A stretch of DNA of 64,000 nucleotides, from assembly GCA_938036765.1 (NCBI GenBank), contig CALHWI010000119.1, positions 5,964-69,963 on the forward strand, given 5' to 3'. The translations under genes and the position numbers were made by a program. This document shows, in pieces, positions 49,999 to 63,583 of this stretch. The notes beneath the pieces are model-generated. The model made no database searches. It saw only the letters and a program-made list of their open reading frames with translations, and was not told the DNA's origin. The DNA is from an uncultured Solobacterium sp. (GTDB taxonomy: Bacteria; Bacillota_I; Bacilli_A; Erysipelotrichales; Erysipelotrichaceae). Each line of letters begins with the position of its first letter. Position 1 is the first letter of the stretch.

Positions 49999-50760
49999 AT
50001 GTTGATATGTCCGGTGTGTAAAGAGAAACTAATAAAAGAAAATAAAACATTTCGATGCGTAAATAATCACTCTTTTGATTGTGCCAAACAAGGCTATGTG
50101 AACTTATCTCGTAAACAGACAAAGAATCATGGAGACAATGCTTTAATGGTCAAAGCGCGTACGGATTTTTTAGAAAAAGATTATTATGATTTTATGCGTC
50201 AATATGTAAAGGAAAAGGCAAAAGGAAATGTTTATTTAGATGCTGGCTGTGGTCAGGGTTACTATACAAAAGAGATAGGTGCAAACTTTGAACATAGCTA
50301 TGGAATCGATTTAAGTAAGGAAGCAATTCTTCATGCTTCTAAACAAGATAAACATACACAATATATTGTGGGGAGTTTATTTGATATGCCTTTTTCAAAT
50401 GCGAGTATTGATTGTGTTACCAGTATTTTTGTGCCGTTAGGACAAAATGAAATTTATCGTATTCTAAAAGAAAATGGATATTGGATCGTTGTGGGTCCGG
50501 GCCCTAAGCATTGTTTTGAATTAAAAGAAGTATTGTATGACACACCCTATGAGAATGAAATGCCTGAAATACAAGAACAATATGAGTTGGTGAGTCAAGA
50601 AATCATTCGAGAAACGAAAATGGTTGATGATGTATGGGCATTATTGGAAATGACACCATATCGATATAAAACGAGTCAAGCTGGTCTTGGGCGTGTAAAA
50701 GAATTAGAAAGGTTTGAGGTTACGTTTGAATTTGTCGTAACTGTGTACAAAAAAATATGA
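49999..50760 (+). CDS. rRNA (guanine-N1)-methyltransferase, RlmA/RrmA-like
   Basis: N-terminal Zn ribbon CPVC...C..NH and SAM motif [10 protein letters not shown]. Confidence 0.6.
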
Positions 50761-52394
50761 AAACAACAATAAAAAAATGGGGAATCAACGGTGAAGGGAT
50801 TGCGTTCCATGAAGGCAAACCGGTATTTATTGAAAATGCTATTCCTGAAGAAGTCATCGAATTTGATATTAAAAGTGATGAAAATACATACTTGATTGGT
50901 GAAATGACTCGTTTAGTTGAACAAAGTTCAAAGCGTCGTTATCCTTTATGTCCAATTTGGAAAGAGTGTGGTGGATGTGCCTTGATGCATGTGAAGTATC
51001 CGGCTCAATGTAAAATGAAAGAAGGAAATCTAAAGGAGACATTAATTAAGTATGCGGATTATAATGGTCGAATCTTACCGATTCTAAAAAATCCAGAACC
51101 ATTGTCTTATCGTAATAGTTGCAAGCTTCCATTTGGTGAAGAATATGGTGAGTTATATACAGGAATGTATGAGCGTGACACAAATCATTTCCAAAAGATG
51201 GAAAGATGTTATGTACACTCAAAACTTTTAGAACAGACGCGTCAGGCTGTTTTAAAAATCATGAATGAACATCACTTGAAAATGTATGATGATAAAAAGA
51301 AAACGGGCTATCGTACGTTGGTTATGAAAGAATTTGATTCTAAGATTCAAATTATTTTTGTGACAGGAAAAGAAGATTTAAGTGAAGAATTTATTCATGA
51401 TATTGCACAGTTAGAGGGTGTTGTATCTATCTGGCAAAGTGTAAAAACAGAAACGAAGCGTGAAGTGTTTGGCGATATGCGTTTTATTTGGGGAGAAGAA
51501 AAGATGCATCTTCAATTAGAAGATATTCAATTGTCTTTACTTCCTAGATCCTTCTTTCAGTTAAACACGAAACAATCCGTAAATCTTTATAATGTGGTTA
51601 AAGACTGGATGCCAAGATCAAAGACTACGGTTGAAGCCTATAGTGGTATTGGTGCCATCAGTTTATTTGTGAAAGATAAGGCACAAGAAATTATAGGTGT
51701 TGAATCCATTCAAGATGCGGTCGATAATGCTAATGAAAATGCGATGTTGAATCATGCCGATAATGTATCTTTTATTTGTGAAGATGCGGGTAGTGCACTA
51801 GCACATTTAGTAAAAGAAAAAGATGTGGATACATTGATTGTGGACCCTCCTCGTTCTGGTTTGGATGATACAATGAAGGAAACAATTTTAAAATCAAAGA
51901 TCAAAACGATGATCTATGTTTCTTGTAACCCTGCTACTTTGGCAAAAGACTTGGGCGTATTAAAGAAAGAATATCGCATTGTTAAGATTCAGCCAGTCGA
52001 TATGTTTAGTCAAACGCCTCATGTAGAAAGTGTTACACTTCTTGTTCGTAATGATGACTATAGACCAAGACGTCGTTTTGATGATAGAAAAGATGGAGAC
52101 TTCAAGCCAAGACGCCGCTTCGATGATGATAAGCCAAGAAGACGTTTTGATGATAAAAAAGATGGAGACTTCCAACCAAGACGCAGATTCAATGATGATA
52201 AACCAAGACGTCGCTTTGATGATCGAAAAGACGGTGACTTTAAACCTAAACGTAGCTTTGACGATGCCAAGCCAAGACGTCGATTCGATGATCGAAAAGA
52301 TGGTGATTTCAAACCAAGACAAAGATTTGATGATGATAAACCAAGACGTCGATTTGATGATGATCGTAAACCAAATCGTAGATACGGAAAATAA
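50757..52394 (+). CDS. TRAM-domain 23S rRNA (uracil-C5)-methyltransferase (RlmD/RumA-like) with ~110-aa Arg/Asp-rich repeat tail
   Basis: TRAM N-terminus, Fe-S cysteines [10 protein letters not shown], MTase motifs. The C-terminal 110 aa are PRRRFDD(R/K)KDGDFK repeats. Confidence 0.75.
52063..52380 (+). repeat. In-frame tandem repeats (about 69-bp unit, about 4.5 copies) encoding [23 protein letters not shown]
   Basis: Periodic DNA. All six frames stay open here, producing spurious overlapping ORFs. Confidence 0.85.
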
Positions 52395-52402
52395 ACATGC
52401 TA

Positions 52403-52432
52403 GGATTTCAGATTGACTGAAATCCTTTTCTT
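52403..52432 (+). terminator. Terminator after the rlmD-like gene
   Basis: GGATTTCAG-ATTGAC-TGAAATCC hairpin followed by TTTTC. Confidence 0.75.
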
Positions 52433-52639
52433 ATTGGATTCTTGTTAAGTATACCTAACTAAAAAAGTTCACAAATTAACTAAATAGATAGCTTTATGTT
52501 AACAAATGCGTTATACTAAAATCGATAGCGCATTCTTTTTATTTTTTTCATAATAATTAATATTAAAAAAATTGGATATTCTTTTAATGTGCCAATTTGT
52601 GAATAAAATAATCTGAATCAATGAGGAGGAGTTTAGAAA

Positions 52640-54562
52640 ATGAATAATTTTCCACATTTATTTGAACCAATTGAAATTGGAAAAACAACTGTAAAAAACC
52701 GTATTTTTATGCCACCTATTTCAACTAACATGGCCGATAAGGGATATGTTACAGATGATTTAGTGGCACACTATTCTGCACGTGCAAAAGGTGGAGTTGG
52801 ACTTATCGTTACTGAAGTTGTAACTGTAGAACCAACTTATGTATATCTTCCAGGAGATATGTCAATTTATGATGATAGTTTTATTCCAGGATGGAAAAAA
52901 TTGGTGGATGGCGTACACCAATATGGAACTAAAATCTTAGCACAATTGTTCCACCCAGCTTATATGGCATTCCCAGTTCCAGGAACACCTCAATTGATTG
53001 CACCAAGCTGTGTAGGACCTTATTATGCAAAAAGTGCACCAAGACCAGCAACCATTGAAGAATTACACACAATTGTTGATCAATTTGGTCAAGCGGCTCA
53101 CCGTGTACAGATTGCCGGTGGTGATGGTGTTGAAATTCAATGTGCTCATGCCCATGGATTATTAGGTGGCTTCTTAACACCTTTATATAATAAACGTACG
53201 GACGAATATGGTGGAAATATTGATGGACGTTTACGCTTATGCTTAGAAGTAATCGCATCTGTTCGTAAATACTGTGGAGATGACTTCATTATTGATGTTC
53301 GTATTAGTGGTGATGAATATAGTGAAGGTGGATTGACATTAAATGATCAGATCTATGTTTGTAAGCAATTAGAAAAAGCCGGTGTTGATTTTATTCACGT
53401 ATCAGGTGGTAACACAATCAAACGTGGATCAAGTATGCCAGCTCCTGGTACAAGTGCTGCACCTCACGCTCATTCAAGTGAAGAAATCAAAAAGCATGTA
53501 AATATCCCAGTCGCTACTGTTGCTCGTATCAACGAACCTTGGATGGCAGAAGAATTAATCGCAAACGGAAAATGTGATATGTGTATGATTGGACGTCCAA
53601 ACTTATGTGATAGTGAATTTGCGAATAAGGCATTTGAAGGTAAAGTAGACGATATTCGTCCATGTATTGGATGTGGACGTTGTTTGACAGGTATCATGAT
53701 GGGTAAACGCATTTCTTGTACAGTAAATCCAAGCGTTGAAGATGATACGATTGAAGAAGCTACAGATAAGAAAAAAGTATTAGTCATTGGTGGTGGTCCT
53801 GCTGGTATGGAAGCGGCATATGTTGCTAAAAAACGTGGACACAAAGTTGTTCTTTGTGAAAAATCAAATGAACTTGGTGGACAATTAAGACTTGCCGCGG
53901 TTCCAATCGCGAAACAAGAATTGTGTAAAGTTATTAAATTCATGATTCGTCGTTTAGATCATGAAGGTATTGATGTTCGCTTAAATACAGAAGTCACAAA
54001 AGAAATGCTTGAAAATGAATTTAAAGATTACGAAATCGTATGTTCAAGTGGAGCTACTCCAAAAGAAATTCCTCCATTTAAAGTATTTAAAAACTGGATG
54101 ACTGCAGACGATGTATTGTCTGGAAAGAAATATCCAGGACGTAATATTGTCGTATTAGGTGGTGGAAGTGTTGGATGTGAAACAGCTGATTATTTAGCAC
54201 CATTAATCAATGACTTATTCCCAATGAATCGTAAGATTACATTATTAGAAATGACAAATAACTTAATGCCTGGTGAAGGTGGAGCTGCAAAATCTAGATT
54301 GACTCAAAGATTGATGCAGAAAGGTGTTCGCATCGAATTGAATGCACAAGTAACAAGTGTGGATGAAAATACAATTACGTATGTAAAAGAGGGTGTTGAA
54401 CACAAGCTTACAGAAGCGGATACTTTAATTTTCGCAGTTGGATATGCACCTAAGAAAGTGGAAGTAGAAAGTGAAAATGTACACTACATTGGTGATTGTG
54501 AAAAAGTAGGAACTTTAAAAGATGCGATCACAAATGCGCATGAAATCGCAAAAAATATCTAG
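52640..54562 (+). CDS. NADH:flavin oxidoreductase, OYE/FMN domain fused to FAD/NAD(P)-binding domain (2,4-dienoyl-CoA reductase/enoate reductase/BaiCD-like)
   Basis: N-terminal OYE TIM barrel (FMPPIST, HAHGLLGGFL), 4Fe-4S cysteines CIGCGRC, two Rossmann motifs VIGGGPAG and VLGGGSVG. 640 aa. Confidence 0.8.
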   Translation: MNNFPHLFEPIEIGKTTVKNRIFMPPISTNMADKGYVTDDLVAHYSARAKGGVGLIVTEVVTVEPTYVYLPGDMSIYDDSFIPGWKKLVDGVHQYGTKILAQLFHPAYMAFPVPGTPQLIAPSCVGPYYAKSAPRPATIEELHTIVDQFGQAAHRVQIAGGDGVEIQCAHAHGLLGGFLTPLYNKRTDEYGGNIDGRLRLCLEVIASVRKYCGDDFIIDVRISGDEYSEGGLTLNDQIYVCKQLEKAGVDFIHVSGGNTIKRGSSMPAPGTSAAPHAHSSEEIKKHVNIPVATVARINEPWMAEELIANGKCDMCMIGRPNLCDSEFANKAFEGKVDDIRPCIGCGRCLTGIMMGKRISCTVNPSVEDDTIEEATDKKKVLVIGGGPAGMEAAYVAKKRGHKVVLCEKSNELGGQLRLAAVPIAKQELCKVIKFMIRRLDHEGIDVRLNTEVTKEMLENEFKDYEIVCSSGATPKEIPPFKVFKNWMTADDVLSGKKYPGRNIVVLGGGSVGCETADYLAPLINDLFPMNRKITLLEMTNNLMPGEGGAAKSRLTQRLMQKGVRIELNAQVTSVDENTITYVKEGVEHKLTEADTLIFAVGYAPKKVEVESENVHYIGDCEKVGTLKDAITNAHEIAKNI

Positions 54563-54570
54563 GAGAAAAT

Positions 54571-56574
54571 ATGACAAGTAAATTATTACAACCAATTCAA
54601 GTTGGTAATTTAACATTTAAAAATAGAATTATGTTTCCCCCTTTGACAACAGGATATGAAGAAAGAGATGGATCGATTGGACCTCGTTCATTAGCTTTCT
54701 ATACAAGACTTGCCAAAGGTGGATGTTCTTATATTGTTATTGGTGATGTGGCTCCTGTTCGTACAGCAAGTCCAACACCAAAACTATATGATGAATCACA
54801 AATTGAAATGTATAAAAAATTGGCAGATGCCTTACATGAACACGATTGTAAAGTCGCTTTACAATTGTTCCATCCAGAATATGATGTTCAAGGCGTAGGA
54901 AAAATGATTATGGAAGCTGGTATTGCTGGTCAATTGGCTGCAAAAGCGAAGGCTGCCAATGATTTAGAAGAGGCTGAAAAACAACAAAAGATCTGTGATG
55001 AATTGACAAAAGGTGCATACGCAAAATTACATCATGATATGCAGCACTTTGTGACTGAAGCAAGTGTTGAACAATTAACAGCTATTAAAAACAGTATTGC
55101 CCAATGTGCTAGAAAAGCACAAAAAGCAGGTATTGATGCGATTGAAATTCATGGTGACCGTTTACTTGGTTCATTATGTTCAACCGTATTAAATCATCGT
55201 ACAGATAACTATGGTGGTAGCTTAGAAAATCGTACTCGTTATGCATTAGAAGTTTTACAAGCGATTAAAGAAGCGGCTCCATCAATGATGGTCGAATATA
55301 AACTTCCAATCATTACTGTCAATCCAGATGGATCTTTACGTGGTAAAGGTGGTTTATTGGAAGATGAAGCGGTTGAATTCGCAAAAATGTTAGATGCAGC
55401 AGGAATTGATATGATTCAAGTGGCTCAAGCTAACCACACAGGAAATATGGGAGATACAATTCCTCCTATGGGGGCGGTTCCATATAACTGGACTTTAGGT
55501 GCTTGTGAAAAAGTCAAGGCTGTTGTACATTGTCCAGTCGCAACAGTGGGTCGTGTAGTCAGTGTGGAAGCTGGTGAAAAGATTCTAGAAGATGGTACAG
55601 CAGATATCATTGGTTATGGAAGAAGTTTATTAACAGATCCAGATATCGCAAATAAAGTAGGCTCAGGTGAATGCATTCGTGAATGTTTGAATTGTAATAA
55701 AGGTTGTGTAGATGCTATCCAATCTCGTCGTTATTTAAGTTGTGTATTAAATGCAGAAAATGGAGATGAAGAAACAATCTTTATTAAACCATGTACAGAA
55801 ACTAAGAATGTTGTCGTAGTTGGTGCAGGTCTTGCGGGTTTAGAAGCCGCTCGTGTAGCTTATAAACGTGGACATACAGTGACGGTATTTGAAAAATCAG
55901 ATCGTTTAGGTGGACAAATCAATATCGCATCAGTTCCACCTAGAAAAGATGAAATTTTACGTTCGGTTCAATACTACGAAAAATTCTTGCCTGGTAAAGT
56001 GGACATTCAATTAAACCACAAACCAACAATGGAAGAATTGAATGGATTTGATCATGTGATCTTGGCCATTGGGGCTCACAATATGGATCTTCCTATGCCT
56101 GTAGAAAATTCAAATGTAGTATCCAGCTGGGATATCTTGAATGGTCAAGAAGTATCTGGTAAATGTGTAGTATTAGGCGGTGGATTAGTTGGTGCTGAAA
56201 CCGCTGAATATTTGGCAAATAAAGGTCTAGAAGTTTCAATCGTTGAAATGATGGATAAAATTGCAGCACAAGAATCTGAAACTGTATTACCTTTGATGGA
56301 AGCTGATTTTGAAAAACACAATGTTCAAAAATTTGTGAATACACGTGTTAGTGAAATTAAAGATAATGTCATCTATGCAGTGAATACAAAAGATGAAACA
56401 AATGTTGAAATTGCTGCAGATACAATTGTAAATGCATTAGGTTCTAAAAAGAATGTATTTGATGATAGTAAGTTAAGTGTTCCATTTACTTATGTAGGTG
56501 ACTGCAGTGGTGAAAGAACAGCAGATATCGCAAGTGCAATTCGTACAGGATATAAGGCTGCCAATGAAATCTAA
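54571..56574 (+). CDS. Second NADH:flavin oxidoreductase paralog of the same fused architecture (BaiH/FadH-like), 667 aa
   Basis: Same domain order, with an about 60-aa insertion in the OYE barrel. VVGAGLAG and VLGGGLVG Rossmann motifs. Confidence 0.8.
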   Translation: MTSKLLQPIQVGNLTFKNRIMFPPLTTGYEERDGSIGPRSLAFYTRLAKGGCSYIVIGDVAPVRTASPTPKLYDESQIEMYKKLADALHEHDCKVALQLFHPEYDVQGVGKMIMEAGIAGQLAAKAKAANDLEEAEKQQKICDELTKGAYAKLHHDMQHFVTEASVEQLTAIKNSIAQCARKAQKAGIDAIEIHGDRLLGSLCSTVLNHRTDNYGGSLENRTRYALEVLQAIKEAAPSMMVEYKLPIITVNPDGSLRGKGGLLEDEAVEFAKMLDAAGIDMIQVAQANHTGNMGDTIPPMGAVPYNWTLGACEKVKAVVHCPVATVGRVVSVEAGEKILEDGTADIIGYGRSLLTDPDIANKVGSGECIRECLNCNKGCVDAIQSRRYLSCVLNAENGDEETIFIKPCTETKNVVVVGAGLAGLEAARVAYKRGHTVTVFEKSDRLGGQINIASVPPRKDEILRSVQYYEKFLPGKVDIQLNHKPTMEELNGFDHVILAIGAHNMDLPMPVENSNVVSSWDILNGQEVSGKCVVLGGGLVGAETAEYLANKGLEVSIVEMMDKIAAQESETVLPLMEADFEKHNVQKFVNTRVSEIKDNVIYAVNTKDETNVEIAADTIVNALGSKKNVFDDSKLSVPFTYVGDCSGERTADIASAIRTGYKAANEI

Positions 56575-56771
56575 GAGGGTGTGAAAACACCTTCTTTTTT
56601 TGCACAAAAAATGACCGTAGTTCATAAATATATAAATAATATATAATATATATCTCAAAACAGTATAAAAATAATGACCATAGTTCATAAATATTACACA
56701 TTTGAAAATTTGTGTATTGAAAAATCATTTTTAAAGAACTAGAATGAAACAATAAAAAGGGAGGAAGAGTT

Positions 56772-58115
56772 ATGAATTTTAGTTCTTTACAGAGTAGTGT
56801 TCAAAAGTTTGGTATGAATCAAGCCTTGAAGTATTTGGAGAAGGATCCAGAAACCAATATTCCTAAATTAATGAATTTAGTAGATAAGGTTATGCCTGAA
56901 GGTTGGTATGGTTCGCAGCGTAAATTGATTCGTGAACAAATCGATGAAAAAGGTGTTTGGTATGACTACATTTTAAAGTTGTATGATTTGGATGCAGGCG
57001 TTCGTCAGGCTGTATTTAAAAACTTTATTTTTAATGCAACACTAAATGGTAGTACAAAACAAGAGGAATTGTCAGAAAAATACAATTGTAATATTCCATG
57101 GGCTGTATTATTAGATCCAACATCTGCATGTAATTTACATTGTACAGGTTGTTGGGCTGCTGAATATGGTCATCAATTAAATTTGTCTTTGGATGATATT
57201 GATTCAATTATTCGTCAAGGAAAAGAATTAGGAACTTACATGTATATTTATACGGGTGGAGAACCTTTAACACGTAAAAAAGATGTTATTAAAATTTGTG
57301 AAATGCACCCAGACTGTGCTTTCTTATCTTTCACAAATGGTACTTTGATTGATGAAGAGTTCTGTCAGGATATGTTGCGTGTGAAAAACTTTGTGCCAGC
57401 CATTAGTTTGGAAGGCTTTGAAACAGCGAATGATTCTAGACGTGGTGAAGGTTGTTACAATTCTGTAAAACGTGCCATGGAATTATTAAAGAAACACAAA
57501 TTGCCTTTTGGAATTAGTACTTGTTATACAAGTGCAAACTATAAAGATATCGCAAGTGATGAATTCTTTGATTTAATGATTGATTCAGGTGCTTTATTCT
57601 GCTGGTTCTTCCACTATATGCCAGTAGGCAATGGGGCTGTTAAAGAATTACTTCCAACGCCAGAACAAAGAGCGTATGTTTATCATCAGATTCGTAAGTT
57701 CAGAAGTGAAAAACCAATTTTCACTATGGATTTCCAAAATGATGCGCAATATGTTGGTGGATGTATTGCCGGAGGAAGAAGATATCTTCATATCAATGCC
57801 AAAGGGGATGTAGAACCATGTGTATTTATTCATTATTCAAACTGTAATATTCATGACACGACATTACTCGATGCACTTAGATCTCCTTTATTCCAGGCTT
57901 ATCATGATAATCAACCATTTAATGAAAATATGTTAAGACCTTGTCCGATGCTTGAAAATGCAGGTCGCATTCAAGAATTGGTGAAACAAAGTAAAGCAGT
58001 TAATACAGATTATGAATCACCAGAAGATGTAGATCACTTATTAGAAAAGACAGTTCCATATGCAAAAAATTGGAAGCCAATGGCTGACAAACTTTGGAAT
58101 GAACAAAAGAAGTAG
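56772..58115 (+). CDS. Radical SAM protein with SPASM/twitch C-terminal domain (anSME-like maturase family)
   Basis: CNLHCTGCW radical-SAM cluster motif. C-terminal Cys-rich CVFIHYSNCN...CP region. 447 aa. Confidence 0.75.
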   Translation: MNFSSLQSSVQKFGMNQALKYLEKDPETNIPKLMNLVDKVMPEGWYGSQRKLIREQIDEKGVWYDYILKLYDLDAGVRQAVFKNFIFNATLNGSTKQEELSEKYNCNIPWAVLLDPTSACNLHCTGCWAAEYGHQLNLSLDDIDSIIRQGKELGTYMYIYTGGEPLTRKKDVIKICEMHPDCAFLSFTNGTLIDEEFCQDMLRVKNFVPAISLEGFETANDSRRGEGCYNSVKRAMELLKKHKLPFGISTCYTSANYKDIASDEFFDLMIDSGALFCWFFHYMPVGNGAVKELLPTPEQRAYVYHQIRKFRSEKPIFTMDFQNDAQYVGGCIAGGRRYLHINAKGDVEPCVFIHYSNCNIHDTTLLDALRSPLFQAYHDNQPFNENMLRPCPMLENAGRIQELVKQSKAVNTDYESPEDVDHLLEKTVPYAKNWKPMADKLWNEQKK

Positions 58116-58165: not shown

Positions 58166-59086
58166 ATGAAGAAGAATAATAAGCGTTTTTCGGGAATATC
58201 CAAACTTCCAAATGGAAATACTTCAAATAAAATTGTTCCTGGGTGTATTGTCCTTGAAGGAGGTGCCTTTCGAGGATTATATACATCAGGAGTATTAGAT
58301 GCTTTGATGCAGTTTGAAATCAATATGCAGTGTACAGTAGGTACAAGTGCAGGGGCACTAAACGGATTTAACTATGTGGCTGGTCAAATTGGTCGTAGTG
58401 CTAGAATTAATTTAGGGTATCGTCATGATTCTCGATATGTTGGTTTAGAAGCTTTTAAAAACAACAAAGGAATCATTGGATTTGATTTTTTGATGAAAGG
58501 AACTCAATATTTTGATCCATTAAATACGCCTCGTTTTATGAATCCAACGCGTGATTTTATTGCGGTATGTACGAATTGTAAAACGGGAAGACCCGAATAT
58601 TTTAGTAAGAATAAAACGCAAGATATTTTTAAAGCCGTACAAGCCAGTGCAACCATGCCTTATGTTTCAAAGATGGTTGAAATTGAAGATGGTTTATATT
58701 TAGATGGTGGCTGCAGTGATAAGATAGCGTATCAATGGGCGTTGGATCATGATTTTGAAAAGATTATTGTCGTTCGTACACGTCAAAGAGAGTATCGTAA
58801 AAGTGAAGTAAATCCTTTGGTTCAAAAAATGACGAAAAGATTGTATGCAGGCTATCCAGCTTTAGAACAGAAACTAGAATCAATGAATAGTGACTACAAT
58901 AAACAGTGTGATGAATTAGCAAGACTTGAAAATGAAGGTAGAATCTTTACGATTGCCCCAAGCAAGCCTGTGAATGTATCGCGTGTAGAGAGGGATGTGG
59001 ATAAACTCGCCGATCTTTATTACATGGGATATTTGGATGGCTTGAATCAGATTCAAAGAATCAAAGAATATTTAGAAATTGATTAA
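58166..59086 (+). CDS. Patatin-like phospholipase
   Basis: GGAFRGLYTSGVLD oxyanion motif, GTSAGA nucleophile elbow, DGG catalytic Asp. Confidence 0.85.
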   Translation: MKKNNKRFSGISKLPNGNTSNKIVPGCIVLEGGAFRGLYTSGVLDALMQFEINMQCTVGTSAGALNGFNYVAGQIGRSARINLGYRHDSRYVGLEAFKNNKGIIGFDFLMKGTQYFDPLNTPRFMNPTRDFIAVCTNCKTGRPEYFSKNKTQDIFKAVQASATMPYVSKMVEIEDGLYLDGGCSDKIAYQWALDHDFEKIIVVRTRQREYRKSEVNPLVQKMTKRLYAGYPALEQKLESMNSDYNKQCDELARLENEGRIFTIAPSKPVNVSRVERDVDKLADLYYMGYLDGLNQIQRIKEYLEID

Positions 59087-60714: not shown

Positions 60715-61327
60715 ATGGTTTATGTTTAGTTTAGCTTTGTTTGTGATTCCTTTAGTATTGAATCTAGTTTTCTATAATCAACTTCCAGATGTTGTGCCAA
60801 CACATTTTGATGTAAATGGACAAGTCGATGGTACAATGCCTAAGTTTATGGGGTTATTTGGCATGTTATTTTTGTGTTTGGCAATTCATGTATTTACTTG
60901 TTTTGTGAGTGTAAAAGATCCAAAGCGAAATAATATTCCAGATTTTATGATGAATATTTTATTTATGATTTGTCCAGTCATCTGTATCATTATCGATATG
61001 ACAATCATTTATTTTGGTTTGGGCTATTCTTTTGATGTTAGTTTTGTGATGAATATTCTAGTGGGTGTATTACTAATTGTATTAGGAAATTATTTGCCAA
61101 AAGTAAAACGGAATTATGCAGTTGGAATTAAAACATCGTGGGCATTGAATAGTGATGAAAACTGGGTGTTGTCAAATCGTGTGGGTGGCTATTGTATGGT
61201 GATAGCTGGAATCTTATATATAGTACTTGGATTACTTGGCTATATGACAATGGGAATTGTTGTGATTCTTGTAGCGACTATTATTCCGTGTATCTATAGT
61301 TATATATTATTTAAGCGAGGAATTTAG
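60701..61327 (+). CDS. SdpI/YhfL-family membrane protein (DUF1648-type N-terminus)
   Basis: LPDVVPTHFDVNGQVDG motif after the first TM helix. Overlaps the ArsR stop. About 208 aa. Confidence 0.55.
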   Translation: MLKNKWFMFSLALFVIPLVLNLVFYNQLPDVVPTHFDVNGQVDGTMPKFMGLFGMLFLCLAIHVFTCFVSVKDPKRNNIPDFMMNILFMICPVICIIIDMTIIYFGLGYSFDVSFVMNILVGVLLIVLGNYLPKVKRNYAVGIKTSWALNSDENWVLSNRVGGYCMVIAGILYIVLGLLGYMTMGIVVILVATIIPCIYSYILFKRGI

Positions 61328-62430
61328 AATCCTCGCTTGATTTCATTTTGGATGCATTTGAATAAGACTTGAATCGTTTCACTAATCATTTTCTTCGTTT
61401 GACTATCCATATTTTGAATGGATTTGATCATCTCAACCATATCGATATTCTTCCTTAAATCCTTTGGATTTTCATAATCTGAAAAGACAGAATAAATGGT
61501 ATCAATGACTTGTTTGCGGGTATTGACATCAATGGATTTAAGCCAATTGGATAGTGTGGATTGTGTATGTTTGGATAGTTGATCATTTTGTTTAAGATAA
61601 ATAAAATCACCGTTTTCAACGCACCACGTAAATGGATCGTGTTGAAGGATGGATATGGCATCACTTTGAATGATTTGATAATTATTTGTTTCTTCAAGTA
61701 AGAGTCCAATAATACTCGATTGTGGTATGGTCTTAAATACTTTCTTATCCGTTTGATAAGGTGTAAGAAATCCAGGCCCATCATGGTTGTATATACAATA
61801 AATTGGATTATGTGTATGTATGCCTGCATATAGGGCAAGATTTGCTCCTTTGGAGTGTCCTCCTAAGATGAGTTTGTGTTTTGTCTTATAATTATTCACA
61901 TAGTTTAAGGCAGAAATTTGACTTGGAATATTTTCTTGAAAACATAGATTGAAGTCTTCTTTCCATCCTACAAAACTAGCGTCTGTACCGCGAAAGGCAA
62001 TGTAATCTATTTGGTTGGGTAAATGAAAAGTCATAGCACAGAATTGTTTTTCATTATCTTTGTCAAAATTAGTTTGTAGATGAGAAATGGTAATGGCTTC
62101 ATAGCGAAGGGAGTGTATGAATTGAAGAAATAATTCTTCGTTTAATTCAGGTACTCGGGTATCCATGCATAAAGTATCAATTTCATTTTCAAAATCATTT
62201 AATAAATGGATTTCGGATTCGATATCAATGCTTGAGTTTTCAAATTTAATATAGGAAATTTGTGAGAGAATCAAAGAGTCCACATTATTAAATGGGTATT
62301 CTTCAAGGGTTAAATTTCCGTATTCTTTGATGTAGTCAATGATGTTTTTCATAGCTTTATTGTAGTTCAGAAATACATTTATTGAAATATGTTCATCGTG
62401 ATTTTTAAAATAATCCAAGTTCGTATACAA
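61324..62430 (-). CDS. Mbeg1-like/DUF2974 alpha-beta hydrolase (lipase-like)
   Basis: GGHSKGANLA nucleophile elbow typical of DUF2974. Confidence 0.5.
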   Translation of the reverse strand: MYTNLDYFKNHDEHISINVFLNYNKAMKNIIDYIKEYGNLTLEEYPFNNVDSLILSQISYIKFENSSIDIESEIHLLNDFENEIDTLCMDTRVPELNEELFLQFIHSLRYEAITISHLQTNFDKDNEKQFCAMTFHLPNQIDYIAFRGTDASFVGWKEDFNLCFQENIPSQISALNYVNNYKTKHKLILGGHSKGANLALYAGIHTHNPIYCIYNHDGPGFLTPYQTDKKVFKTIPQSSIIGLLLEETNNYQIIQSDAISILQHDPFTWCVENGDFIYLKQNDQLSKHTQSTLSNWLKSIDVNTRKQVIDTIYSVFSDYENPKDLRKNIDMVEMIKSIQNMDSQTKKMISETIQVLFKCIQNEIKRGF

Positions 62431-62454
62431 TAAAGTAAGTGAGGGTGGATTGTT

Positions 62455-63012
62455 ATGTTGATATTTGGGATTTTGAGTATTTGTCTGAGTTTAGATGTAT
62501 TTGTATGTGCACTAGAACAGGGGGCTTCAATTCGTAATATTCGCTTTTCAAAAGCATTGGTTTATGGATTGATTTTTGCGCTATGCAGTTCGGGTATGTT
62601 TTTATTAGGACATGGAATGTCCACACATATTTTTGGACGTCCATTGGCAATATTGAATAAATATGTTGCGATATTTGTCTTTTTGATTCTTGGAAATGGA
62701 ATGGTCATTTATAGTTTTAAGCGTGGAAAGTTTGTGGAAAGACTACAAGAGTTTGATACAAAACAAATTATTAAATTGGCTCTTATTGGAGGACTCGACT
62801 GTTTCTTTGTTGGAGTTGGCTGTTATTATATGAATCTTCCTTATTTGATGGAGTCTTTAGTCTTATTTTTAATTGTACTTGCTGGCTATATGATTCATTT
62901 TTATATTGGATATTATAATGGGGCCGGATATCAAAAGGCTTATTATTTTCTTTGCGGAGTCGTATACTTATTTATGAGCTTATCATTAATTTTTAAATTA
63001 ATTCGATTGTAG
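62455..63012 (+). CDS. MntP/YtaF-like (DUF204) small membrane protein, possible Mn efflux pump
   Basis: 185 aa, LSLDVFVCAL in TM1 resembling the LSMDAFAVS motif of MntP. Duplicated halves. Confidence 0.4.
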   Translation: MLIFGILSICLSLDVFVCALEQGASIRNIRFSKALVYGLIFALCSSGMFLLGHGMSTHIFGRPLAILNKYVAIFVFLILGNGMVIYSFKRGKFVERLQEFDTKQIIKLALIGGLDCFFVGVGCYYMNLPYLMESLVLFLIVLAGYMIHFYIGYYNGAGYQKAYYFLCGVVYLFMSLSLIFKLIRL

Positions 63013-63022
63013 AGGTGATTTC

Positions 63023-63583
63023 ATGACATTTAATGAAAAGGTGACAATGAAAGATCTTCTGAGTGAGGGATTGTATATTTTGATGCAACAAAAGCCTTTC
63101 GAAAAGATCACAATCAAACAGATTTGCGATAAAACAGGCGTTATTCGTGGAACTTTCTATAATCATTTTATGGATAAGTATGAGGCATTGGAATATTTGA
63201 TTCATCGTATGTTTTATAAAGGGATTGAGCATGAATCAAATCCTCAAATTATAAAACATATCTTTCAGACTGTAAGTGATGATCGTGATTTCTTTAAGTC
63301 TTGTTATAGAATTACAGGGCAGAATGGTTTTGAAGATTTAATGAGTAATGTGTTTAAAGAAATATTTAGAAATGTATTTTCTTATTTAGATGTGAGTAGG
63401 ATGGATTCAAGATTCACAATAGATTTTTTAGTGGATTATTATGCGAATGATTTATTATACTTTTTAAAGTATTGGATTTTGCATAATTTTGAACCGGATG
63501 TAGAAACATATTATGCCAAGATCGATATTTTATTTAAAAACAGTATTAAAGAATTAAATATTCGATATATGGATAAATCTTAA
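63023..63583 (+). CDS. TetR/AcrR-family transcriptional regulator
   Basis: N-terminal HTH ITIKQICDKTGVIRGTFYNHF. Confidence 0.7.
   Translation: MTFNEKVTMKDLLSEGLYILMQQKPFEKITIKQICDKTGVIRGTFYNHFMDKYEALEYLIHRMFYKGIEHESNPQIIKHIFQTVSDDRDFFKSCYRITGQNGFEDLMSNVFKEIFRNVFSYLDVSRMDSRFTIDFLVDYYANDLLYFLKYWILHNFEPDVETYYAKIDILFKNSIKELNIRYMDKS

Follow-up and report, generated by a model that had tools for sequence, protein, structure and literature searches.

The 64,000-nucleotide stretch of DNA analysed here (hereafter the window) carries two adjacent flavoenzyme genes, bilV and bilR. We read region 52441–56596 as a two-gene bilV–bilR operon whose products would convert unconjugated bilirubin to urobilinogen, and attach a probability of about 0.9 to this reading. 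A first-pass annotation, made from the letters of the sequence, had described two reductases of 640 and 667 residues followed by a radical S-adenosylmethionine (SAM)/SPASM gene. The open reading frames (ORFs) lie exactly where it had put them: bilV at 52640–54562 (640 amino acids), bilR at 54571–56574 (667 amino acids) and the radical SAM gene at 56772–58115 (447 amino acids), all on the plus strand. Gene structure, motifs, family membership, synteny and boundaries are results of the present analysis; the enzyme activities are taken from the literature on the orthologues of M. gnavus and F. intestinalis (Faecalibacillus intestinalis). The BilV protein of the window is 97–99% identical to its Holdemanella homologues—those of H. 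biformis DSM 3989, H. hominis and several Holdemanella metagenome-assembled genomes—and the window is assigned by its sequence to a Holdemanella chromosome (H. biformis group). A contig identical to the window sequence originates from a human gut metagenome.

The two proteins share the architecture of the FadH/BaiCD-like old yellow enzyme (OYE)-FeS-FAD ene-reductases, the superfamily to which they had already been attributed. In both, the flavin mononucleotide (FMN)-binding domain PF00724 Oxidored_FMN (Pfam; E = 1.3e-65 in the 640-residue protein and 5e-49 in the 667-residue protein) is followed C-terminally by pyridine-nucleotide-disulphide oxidoreductase domains (PF07992/PF00070). A four-cysteine motif between these two parts (C342-x2-C-x2-C-x11-C360 and C372-x2-C-x3-C-x11-C391, respectively) and a pair of GxGxxG motifs (positions 384/507 and 418/536) in each protein agree with the OYE barrel, 4Fe-4S cluster and flavin adenine dinucleotide (FAD)/NAD(P) domain that the first-pass annotation had recognised. 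The bilV product thus comprises an FMN TIM barrel, an AHAH motif at 169–172, the 4Fe-4S cysteine motif at 342–360, an FAD motif at 384–389 and a nicotinamide nucleotide (NAD(P)H) motif at 507–512. With 34.6% identity across 613 aligned positions, the two proteins must be old paralogues rather than the outcome of a recent duplication. The top match among solved structures was E. coli FadH (PDB 1PS9; E = 2.4e-86, residues 4–520), and all four cysteines of the 640-residue protein coincide with the cluster ligands of FadH in the 1PS9 alignment.

The 667-residue protein is identified from its sequence as BilR, the bilirubin reductase acting on methine bridges, in its long form. With NF045599, the model for the long form of bilirubin reductase (cut-off 750), its score is 1038.7 bits, and with NF045592, which covers the N-terminal part of bilirubin reductase (cut-off 425), it is 533 bits. 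HGDR is present at residues 194–197; nearly all of the BilR clade shares this motif, and in the M. gnavus enzyme a D166A/R167A double mutation removed most of the activity (Hall et al. 2024, PMC10769871). The surrounding residues, IEIHGDRLLGS, match EVHG[DR]LIGSF, as specified by the primer used for mutagenesis in the same study (Hall et al. 2024, PMC10769871). In that work BilR was delimited by its domains, as having PF00724 only (short form) or PF00724 with PF07992 (long form) (PMC10769871). The protein of the window has PF00724 at 4–366 and PF07992 at 413–629, its remaining matches being overlapping Rossmann families. It thus resembles published BilR (PMC10769871; NF045599/NF045592) in the models passed, the HGDR motif, the long-form domain pair and the 4Fe-4S motif. 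HGDR stands 30 positions later than in M. gnavus (164–167), and an insertion at approximately 130–163, before the active-site loop, adds 34 residues relative to BilV and about 28 relative to the NCBIfam profile. Because of this insertion before the HGDR loop, the protein probably belongs to the ‘BilR-insertion’ subtype, which has been linked to bilV (Jiang et al. PMC13252198).

The 640-residue protein is assigned on its sequence to BilV, the bilinoid (bilirubin) vinyl reductase. No model of NCBIfam release 20.0 was reached by this protein; it scored 472.6 bits with BaiCD, 469.9 with mycofactocin OYE-2 and 450.1 with bilirubin reductase, in each case far under the cut-off. Two preprints of June 2026 describe the gene adjoining bilR as one for a bilinoid vinyl reductase of the OYE family (Jiang et al. 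PMC13252198; Russell et al. doi 10.64898/2026.06.10.731317). Where BilR has its HGDR loop, BilV has one that is longer by three residues and contains AHAH; an H170G/H172G mutant of BilV is inactive (Jiang et al. PMC13252198; Russell et al. doi 10.64898/2026.06.10.731317). The AHAH of the window protein, at 169–172, has the same numbering as H170/H172 of M. gnavus (Russell et al. doi 10.64898/2026.06.10.731317). A Q-C pair precedes the motif in place of H-A, as it also does in a subgroup comprising Lachnospira, Schaedlerella and Bulleidia, and we regard this as no substantive difference.

Supplementary Table 1 of Jiang et al. (PMC13252198) lists BilV by species and includes several from Holdemanella. 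Over the first 400 residues the window protein is 97.7% identical to the author-listed Holdemanella entries and 71.6% identical to that listed for Collinsella. Identity is 82.7% to BilV of F. intestinalis, whose bilR-bilV operon yielded urobilinogen when expressed in E. coli; 76.2% to that of C. scindens, a strain of which turns divinyl-urobilinogen into urobilinogen in culture; and 75.9% to that of M. gnavus, studied in lysate assays. The authors’ profile hidden Markov model (HMM) accepts BilV at 1000 bits or above (Jiang et al. PMC13252198), and the near-identical Holdemanella sequences passed it, since they are present in the authors’ table. The window gene accordingly agrees with published BilV (PMC13252198; doi 10.64898/2026.06.10.731317) in AHAH numbering, in its 76–83% identity to assayed orthologues and in its near-identity to the listed Holdemanella proteins. 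As in F. intestinalis and Collinsella, it lies directly 5′ of bilR.

A search of 1.84 billion cluster representatives found the nearest full-length non-BilV clusters to be at most 45% identical to the BilV of the window, and, of 141 such clusters, 108 have the canonical His...Tyr at the positions of H170 and H172. In a neighbour-joining (NJ) tree of the barrel region, BilV of the window falls within the BilV clade and BilR within the HGDR clade. Both stand apart from FadH and from other OYE-FeS-FAD proteins. Taken together, family placement, motifs and this gap between clusters make the assignments to the BilV and BilR families secure. Four of the nearest non-BilV representatives (P0271, P0272, P0273 and P0275; 41–45% identical) carry His-x-His loops, AHDH, CHGH, AHAH and AHNH, in place of Gly-Tyr; these clusters may form sister clades to BilV that act on other substrates.

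Since the 667-residue protein passes the bilirubin reductase model and the 640-residue protein is a listed BilV, the substrate is taken to be bilirubin. The first-pass annotation had proposed that the two paralogues act on one substrate class. This holds in so far as they would reduce different C=C bonds of a single host-derived substrate; the substrate, however, would be bilirubin and not the bile acids, cinnamates or steroids that had been suggested.

In FadH, electrons pass from NAD(P)H through FAD and a [4Fe-4S] cluster to FMN, which delivers a hydride to a C=C bond. The same path has been proposed for BilR and BilV (Hall et al. PMC10769871; Jiang et al. PMC13252198; Russell et al. doi 10.64898/2026.06.10.731317). 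In the enzymes of the window electrons would likewise run from NAD(P)H to FAD, [4Fe-4S] and FMN, as in 2,4-dienoyl-CoA reductase, and N5 of FMN would pass a hydride to the C=C bond. The proton would come from the loop found in place of FadH Tyr166, namely from His172 (with His170) in BilV and from Asp196/Arg197 of HGDR in BilR. BilV is expected to reduce the vinyl side chains at C3 and C18, taking bilirubin to mesobilirubin and divinyl-urobilinogen to urobilinogen, and BilR to reduce the methine bridges; the two steps could occur in either order. Both genes would be expressed as one transcript between two terminators.

The proposed boundaries of that transcript are as follows, all on the plus strand. 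On the left, a terminator-like hairpin at 52402–52426 (a 10-bp stem followed by a T-run) lies 3′ of a trmA/rlmCD-like gene. The next block, the approximately 200 nucleotides at 52441–52639, is conserved in all Holdemanella genomes and is presumed to hold the promoter and leader of bilV, with the ribosome-binding site (RBS) GAGGAGG. In the Holdemanella alignment this conservation begins at TTGTTAAGTA and is kept even where the upstream gene is a different one (loci L004, L006, L007 and L008), so the block belongs to bilV. At the bilV–bilR junction (54561–54573) the RBS of bilR, AGGAG, overlaps the bilV stop codon TAG (54560–54562), and the ATG of bilR follows at 54571 after a gap of 8 nucleotides; a terminator scan found none between the two genes. 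The short gap and overlapping RBS are consistent with co-transcription, and the two genes are probably translationally coupled. On the right, a terminator-like hairpin at 56573–56596, conserved in all Holdemanella loci, overlaps the stop codon of bilR. An Rfam scan of the intergenic regions 5′ of bilV and 5′ of the radical SAM gene revealed no riboswitch or known RNA family.

The pairing extends well beyond Holdemanella. Among 33 loci whose BilV is at least 69% identical to that of the window, 20 have bilV followed by bilR with gaps of approximately 8–170 nucleotides; they span two bacterial classes (Erysipelotrichales, Lachnospirales) and include Lachnospira, Schaedlerella, Mediterraneibacter and Bulleidia. 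In one further locus bilR is degraded, and several loci have bilV without bilR, as the preprints also report (PMC13252198; doi 10.64898/2026.06.10.731317). AHAH is present in every sampled gene at the upstream (bilV) position and HGDR in every sampled gene at the downstream (bilR) position. No regulatory motif 5′ of bilV is visibly shared across genera, the promoter region being lineage-specific. Proteins of Holdemanella and of Lachnospiraceae and other Clostridia (L013–L025) are 80–89% identical for BilV and 74–82% for BilR; for Lachnospiraceae BilV the range is 83–89%. Such high identity across different classes suggests that the pair was transferred between them at some time. The G+C content at third codon positions (GC3) is 0.19–0.20 for bilV and bilR and 0.22–0.27 for neighbouring genes, and in this comparison no compositional trace of recent horizontal transfer was seen.

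Several points weigh against reading the region as a bilirubin-reducing operon. The bilirubin activity of Holdemanella proteins and strains is extrapolated from orthologues: the enzymes would have the same activities as those assayed elsewhere. A search of one literature library yielded no paper that links Holdemanella to bilR or reports its production of urobilin(ogen), and the published evidence for BilV consists of two preprints (PMC13252198; doi 10.64898/2026.06.10.731317). Co-transcription of bilV and bilR is deduced from spacing and terminators. A consensus promoter scan gave no clear -35/-10 pair 5′ of bilV (no site with at least 9/12 matches), so the position given for the bilV promoter is presumptive. 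Finally, the probable ‘BilR-insertion’ subtype was assigned from a comparison of lengths.

Four other explanations were weighed. In the first, the radical SAM gene would be a third member of the bil system, for instance converting a bilin product to stercobilinogen or acting on a propionate side chain. The gene lies on the same strand and next to bilVR in every Holdemanella locus, its top NCBIfam matches are the tetrapyrrole-modifying NirJ2 (80 bits) and AhbD (75.2 bits), and the step from urobilinogen to stercobilinogen is still without an assigned enzyme. Nevertheless, bilR closes with a terminator, and a promoter-like site and boxes of its own precede the radical SAM gene. Outside Holdemanella, no radical SAM homologue occurs within 10 kb of bilV in any locus, and the homologues found in Lachnospiraceae, Oscillospiraceae and other Clostridia are never beside bilVR. 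The NirJ2 and AhbD scores are far under their cut-offs of 500 and near those of unrelated SPASM maturases, while a fold search returned generic SPASM/twitch matches only. We consider a third bil member very unlikely, and it is slightly less probable still that urobilinoids made by BilV and BilR are substrates of this radical SAM/twitch enzyme, for example in a step towards stercobilinogen or towards another bilin derivative to which no enzyme has yet been assigned. The radical SAM gene is, on the sequence evidence, a separate transcription unit outside the bil system, and it stands beside bilVR only through a gene order specific to the genus.

According to the second explanation, bilirubin is an over-called annotation, and the pair are 2,4-dienoyl-CoA or enoate/cinnamate reductases of a generic kind. 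FadH is indeed the best match of known structure, its cofactor motifs are all conserved, and the fold and cofactor chain (FMN barrel, 4Fe-4S with its four cysteines, FAD and NADPH domains) are the same. However, neither protein retains the catalytic Tyr166 of FadH, its proton donor: in BilV the aligned residue is His172, in BilR the position falls to the shortened HGDR loop. The presumed substrate is a linear tetrapyrrole and not an acyl-CoA. Both proteins belong to discrete clades with motifs needed for activity, as the D166A/R167A (BilR, PMC10769871) and H170G/H172G (BilV, doi 10.64898/2026.06.10.731317) mutants show, and identity to FadH-like clusters is at most 45%. The first-pass annotation had itself named placement in the FadH clade as evidence against its proposal; the tree sets both proteins apart from FadH, and the same loss of Tyr166 speaks against the dienoyl-CoA and enoate reductases it had offered. 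An over-call of this kind is highly improbable.

Equally improbable is the third explanation, that the 640-residue paralogue is a urobilinogen reductase making stercobilinogen and not a vinyl reductase. This was the function first considered by Jiang et al. (PMC13252198), given the linkage to bilR. M. gnavus, however, has both genes and yields only urobilinogen; lysates containing BilV only gave mesobilirubin and monovinyl products; and the F. intestinalis operon produced urobilinogen, with no stercobilinogen reported.

The weakest explanation, which we find barely credible, is that the pair are BaiCD/BaiH-type bile-acid 3-oxo-delta4/delta6 reductases, as the first-pass annotation had preferred: superfamily, length, domain order and gut-Firmicute habitat are the same and BaiCD is the first-ranked NCBIfam match of the 640-residue protein by E-value, but the BaiCD equivalog NF041087 gives 472.6 and 396.3 bits for the 640- and 667-residue proteins against a cut-off of 825, the former score is no better than those for mycofactocin OYE-2 or bilirubin reductase, the 667-residue protein passes the bilirubin reductase model, and the 640-residue protein is 76–83% identical to BilVs with measured vinyl reductase activity. 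This comparison was made with the BaiCD model and included no BaiH sequence. Within approximately 15 kb of the pair, Pfam assignments and evident products revealed no bai-type gene and hence no bai operon context; the surroundings of bilV–bilR are housekeeping genes.

The bilV–bilR operon identified here is an instance of an already known system, published in 2024 (BilR) and 2026 (BilV) and ordinary for a gut Firmicute. Near-identical Holdemanella sequences are already in the published BilV list, so no new kind of system is described. The excretion of bile pigments is governed by the reduction, in gut bacteria, of bilirubin to urobilinogen, a process that also bears on jaundice, and the enzymes responsible were identified only in 2024 (BilR, PMC10769871) and 2026 (BilV, PMC13252198; doi 10.64898/2026.06.10.731317). 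The window offers a clean and complete bilV–bilR operon in Holdemanella, a common genus of the human gut. The practical value lies in correct annotation, as such proteins, generically named, are easily mistaken for Bai enzymes: the sources searched give names for few BilV homologues, and these are generic (‘FAD-dependent oxidoreductase’ or ‘dienoyl-CoA reductase-like’), and give none for BilR homologues. The assignment predicts complete conversion of bilirubin to urobilinogen by H. biformis on its own.

Pfam assignments of the ORFs place ezrA, a cysteine desulfurase gene, thiI and two RNA methyltransferase genes 5′ of the pair. To its 3′ side lie the radical SAM gene, a patatin-like gene, macro-domain genes, an ArsR-like/SdpI pair and Mbeg1-like, MntP and TetR genes. 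The nearest 5′ neighbour, a trmA/rlmCD-like RNA (uracil-5) methyltransferase gene (ORF 50757–52394), encodes an arginine/aspartate-rich repeat tail of about 115 residues at 52051–52361. This tail is specified by a 69-nucleotide tandem repeat (4.5 copies, 80% match), which accounts for the spurious overlapping ORFs at 51960–52416, and the matched length of the gene differs among Holdemanella genomes. In Holdemanella hominis L34 a 7.7-kb island with phosphotransferase system (PTS) EIIA/EIICB, RpiR and M20 peptidase genes separates the trmA-like gene from bilV. The bilR region of that strain (L008 11921–14130) is 92% identical to the window at the DNA level, with 8 gap openings and a protein match spread across three frames; it is either a pseudogene beside an intact bilV or the product of assembly indels.

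No universally linked third gene was found beside bilVR among the loci compared, the neighbours being lineage-specific (MATE transporter, AraC regulator, FUSC, DUF3169). A MATE transporter gene lies 3′ of bilV(R) in six Lachnospiraceae/Clostridia loci (e.g. L015 15975–17351), and an AraC-family regulator gene directly 3′ of bilR in four Bulleidia-type loci (e.g. L028 6579–7382). A gene for a FUSC-like membrane protein is found just 5′ of solitary bilV genes (e.g. L017 8849–9895).

The radical SAM protein, of 447 residues, matches PF04055 Radical_SAM (E = 1.1e-16) and, weakly, PF13186 SPASM (E = 1.5e-5) in Pfam. An N-terminal helical domain of approximately 105 residues precedes C120-x3-C124-x2-C127, and the C-terminal domain is a partial SPASM/twitch domain. 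No curated family was passed: TIGR04545, TIGR04055 and TIGR04051 (cut-offs 500–515) gave 75.2, 80 and 60.5 bits, and TIGR03942, the anaerobic sulfatase maturase model, gave 47.6 bits against a cut-off of 349. PDB sequence and fold searches returned generic SPASM/twitch enzymes, SkfB and SuiB being the best fold matches. The protein thus shares with the SPASM/twitch enzymes (anSME, SkfB, SuiB, PqqE, AhbD/NirJ) the CxxxCxxC core and a cysteine-containing C-terminal auxiliary domain, and differs from them in its additional N-terminal helical domain and in having no adjacent peptide or sulfatase gene. This lack of a partner had been remarked on in the first-pass annotation and is borne out, the evidence placing the gene outside the bilVR unit.

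Members of this radical SAM family are 74–77% identical across Lachnospiraceae, Oscillospiraceae and other Clostridia, where TetR, a degenerate paralogue, DegV, MetK, PLD or DedA genes are found nearby. In three clostridial contexts (L039 2706–5356, L041 2627–5362 and L042 2701–5368) the gene stands head-to-head with a distant paralogue of 341–355 residues, which is 19–23% identical, lacks CxxxCxxC, has no Pfam hit and is accompanied by a TetR_C_8 regulator. The sources searched gave no curated model of, or assigned function for, the family; it merits study apart from any link to bilins, given its high conservation, its degenerate clostridial paralogue and its two-box operator architecture. 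The patatin, DegV, PLD and DedA neighbours provide a lead, and a lead only, to a candidate role as an Mss-like membrane-spanning lipid synthase; among the listed matches of the protein in the PDB sequence search and Foldseek there was no lipid synthase. Regions 58166–59086 and 61324–63583 of the window hold genes for a patatin-like phospholipase with DUF6363, an Mbeg1-like (lipase-like) protein, MntP and a TetR_C_8 regulator. The MntP–TetR pair is also found beside the radical SAM homologue in the clostridial contig L039, which hints at an old association that was split by inserted genes in Holdemanella.

The gap between bilR and the radical SAM gene (56575–56771; 197 nucleotides, 23.9% G+C) contains duplicated 22-nucleotide boxes, just as the first-pass annotation had pointed out. 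The box reads AATGACC[G/A]TAGTTCATAAATAT, and its two copies, at 56610–56631 and 56673–56694 on the plus strand, are 63 nucleotides apart. With up to 3 mismatches allowed, no other stretch of the window matches the box, and none of 100 shuffles gave any match. Their core, ATGAC-N5-TTCAT, forms an imperfect palindrome and is a candidate operator 5′ of the radical SAM promoter; this core has 3 matches in the window against 1.1 expected, the third being unrelated. A sigma-70-like promoter match for the radical SAM gene, TTGAAA-17-TAGAAT (10/12 consensus), lies at 56717–56745 on the same strand and is conserved in Holdemanella. The half-sites ATGAC ... TCAT are kept in other Holdemanella species and the centre varies, as in an operator. 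As the Holdemanella genomes are close relatives, this conservation is weak evidence for an operator. The TetR_C_8 regulator encoded at 63023–63583 was considered as the protein binding these boxes and rejected, no further box being present near its gene or elsewhere in the window. In Clostridia, the intergenic region between the radical SAM gene and its paralogue contains two GGACA-N11-TGTCC-like palindromes, whose distance of approximately 60 nucleotides repeats the two-box spacing of the window.

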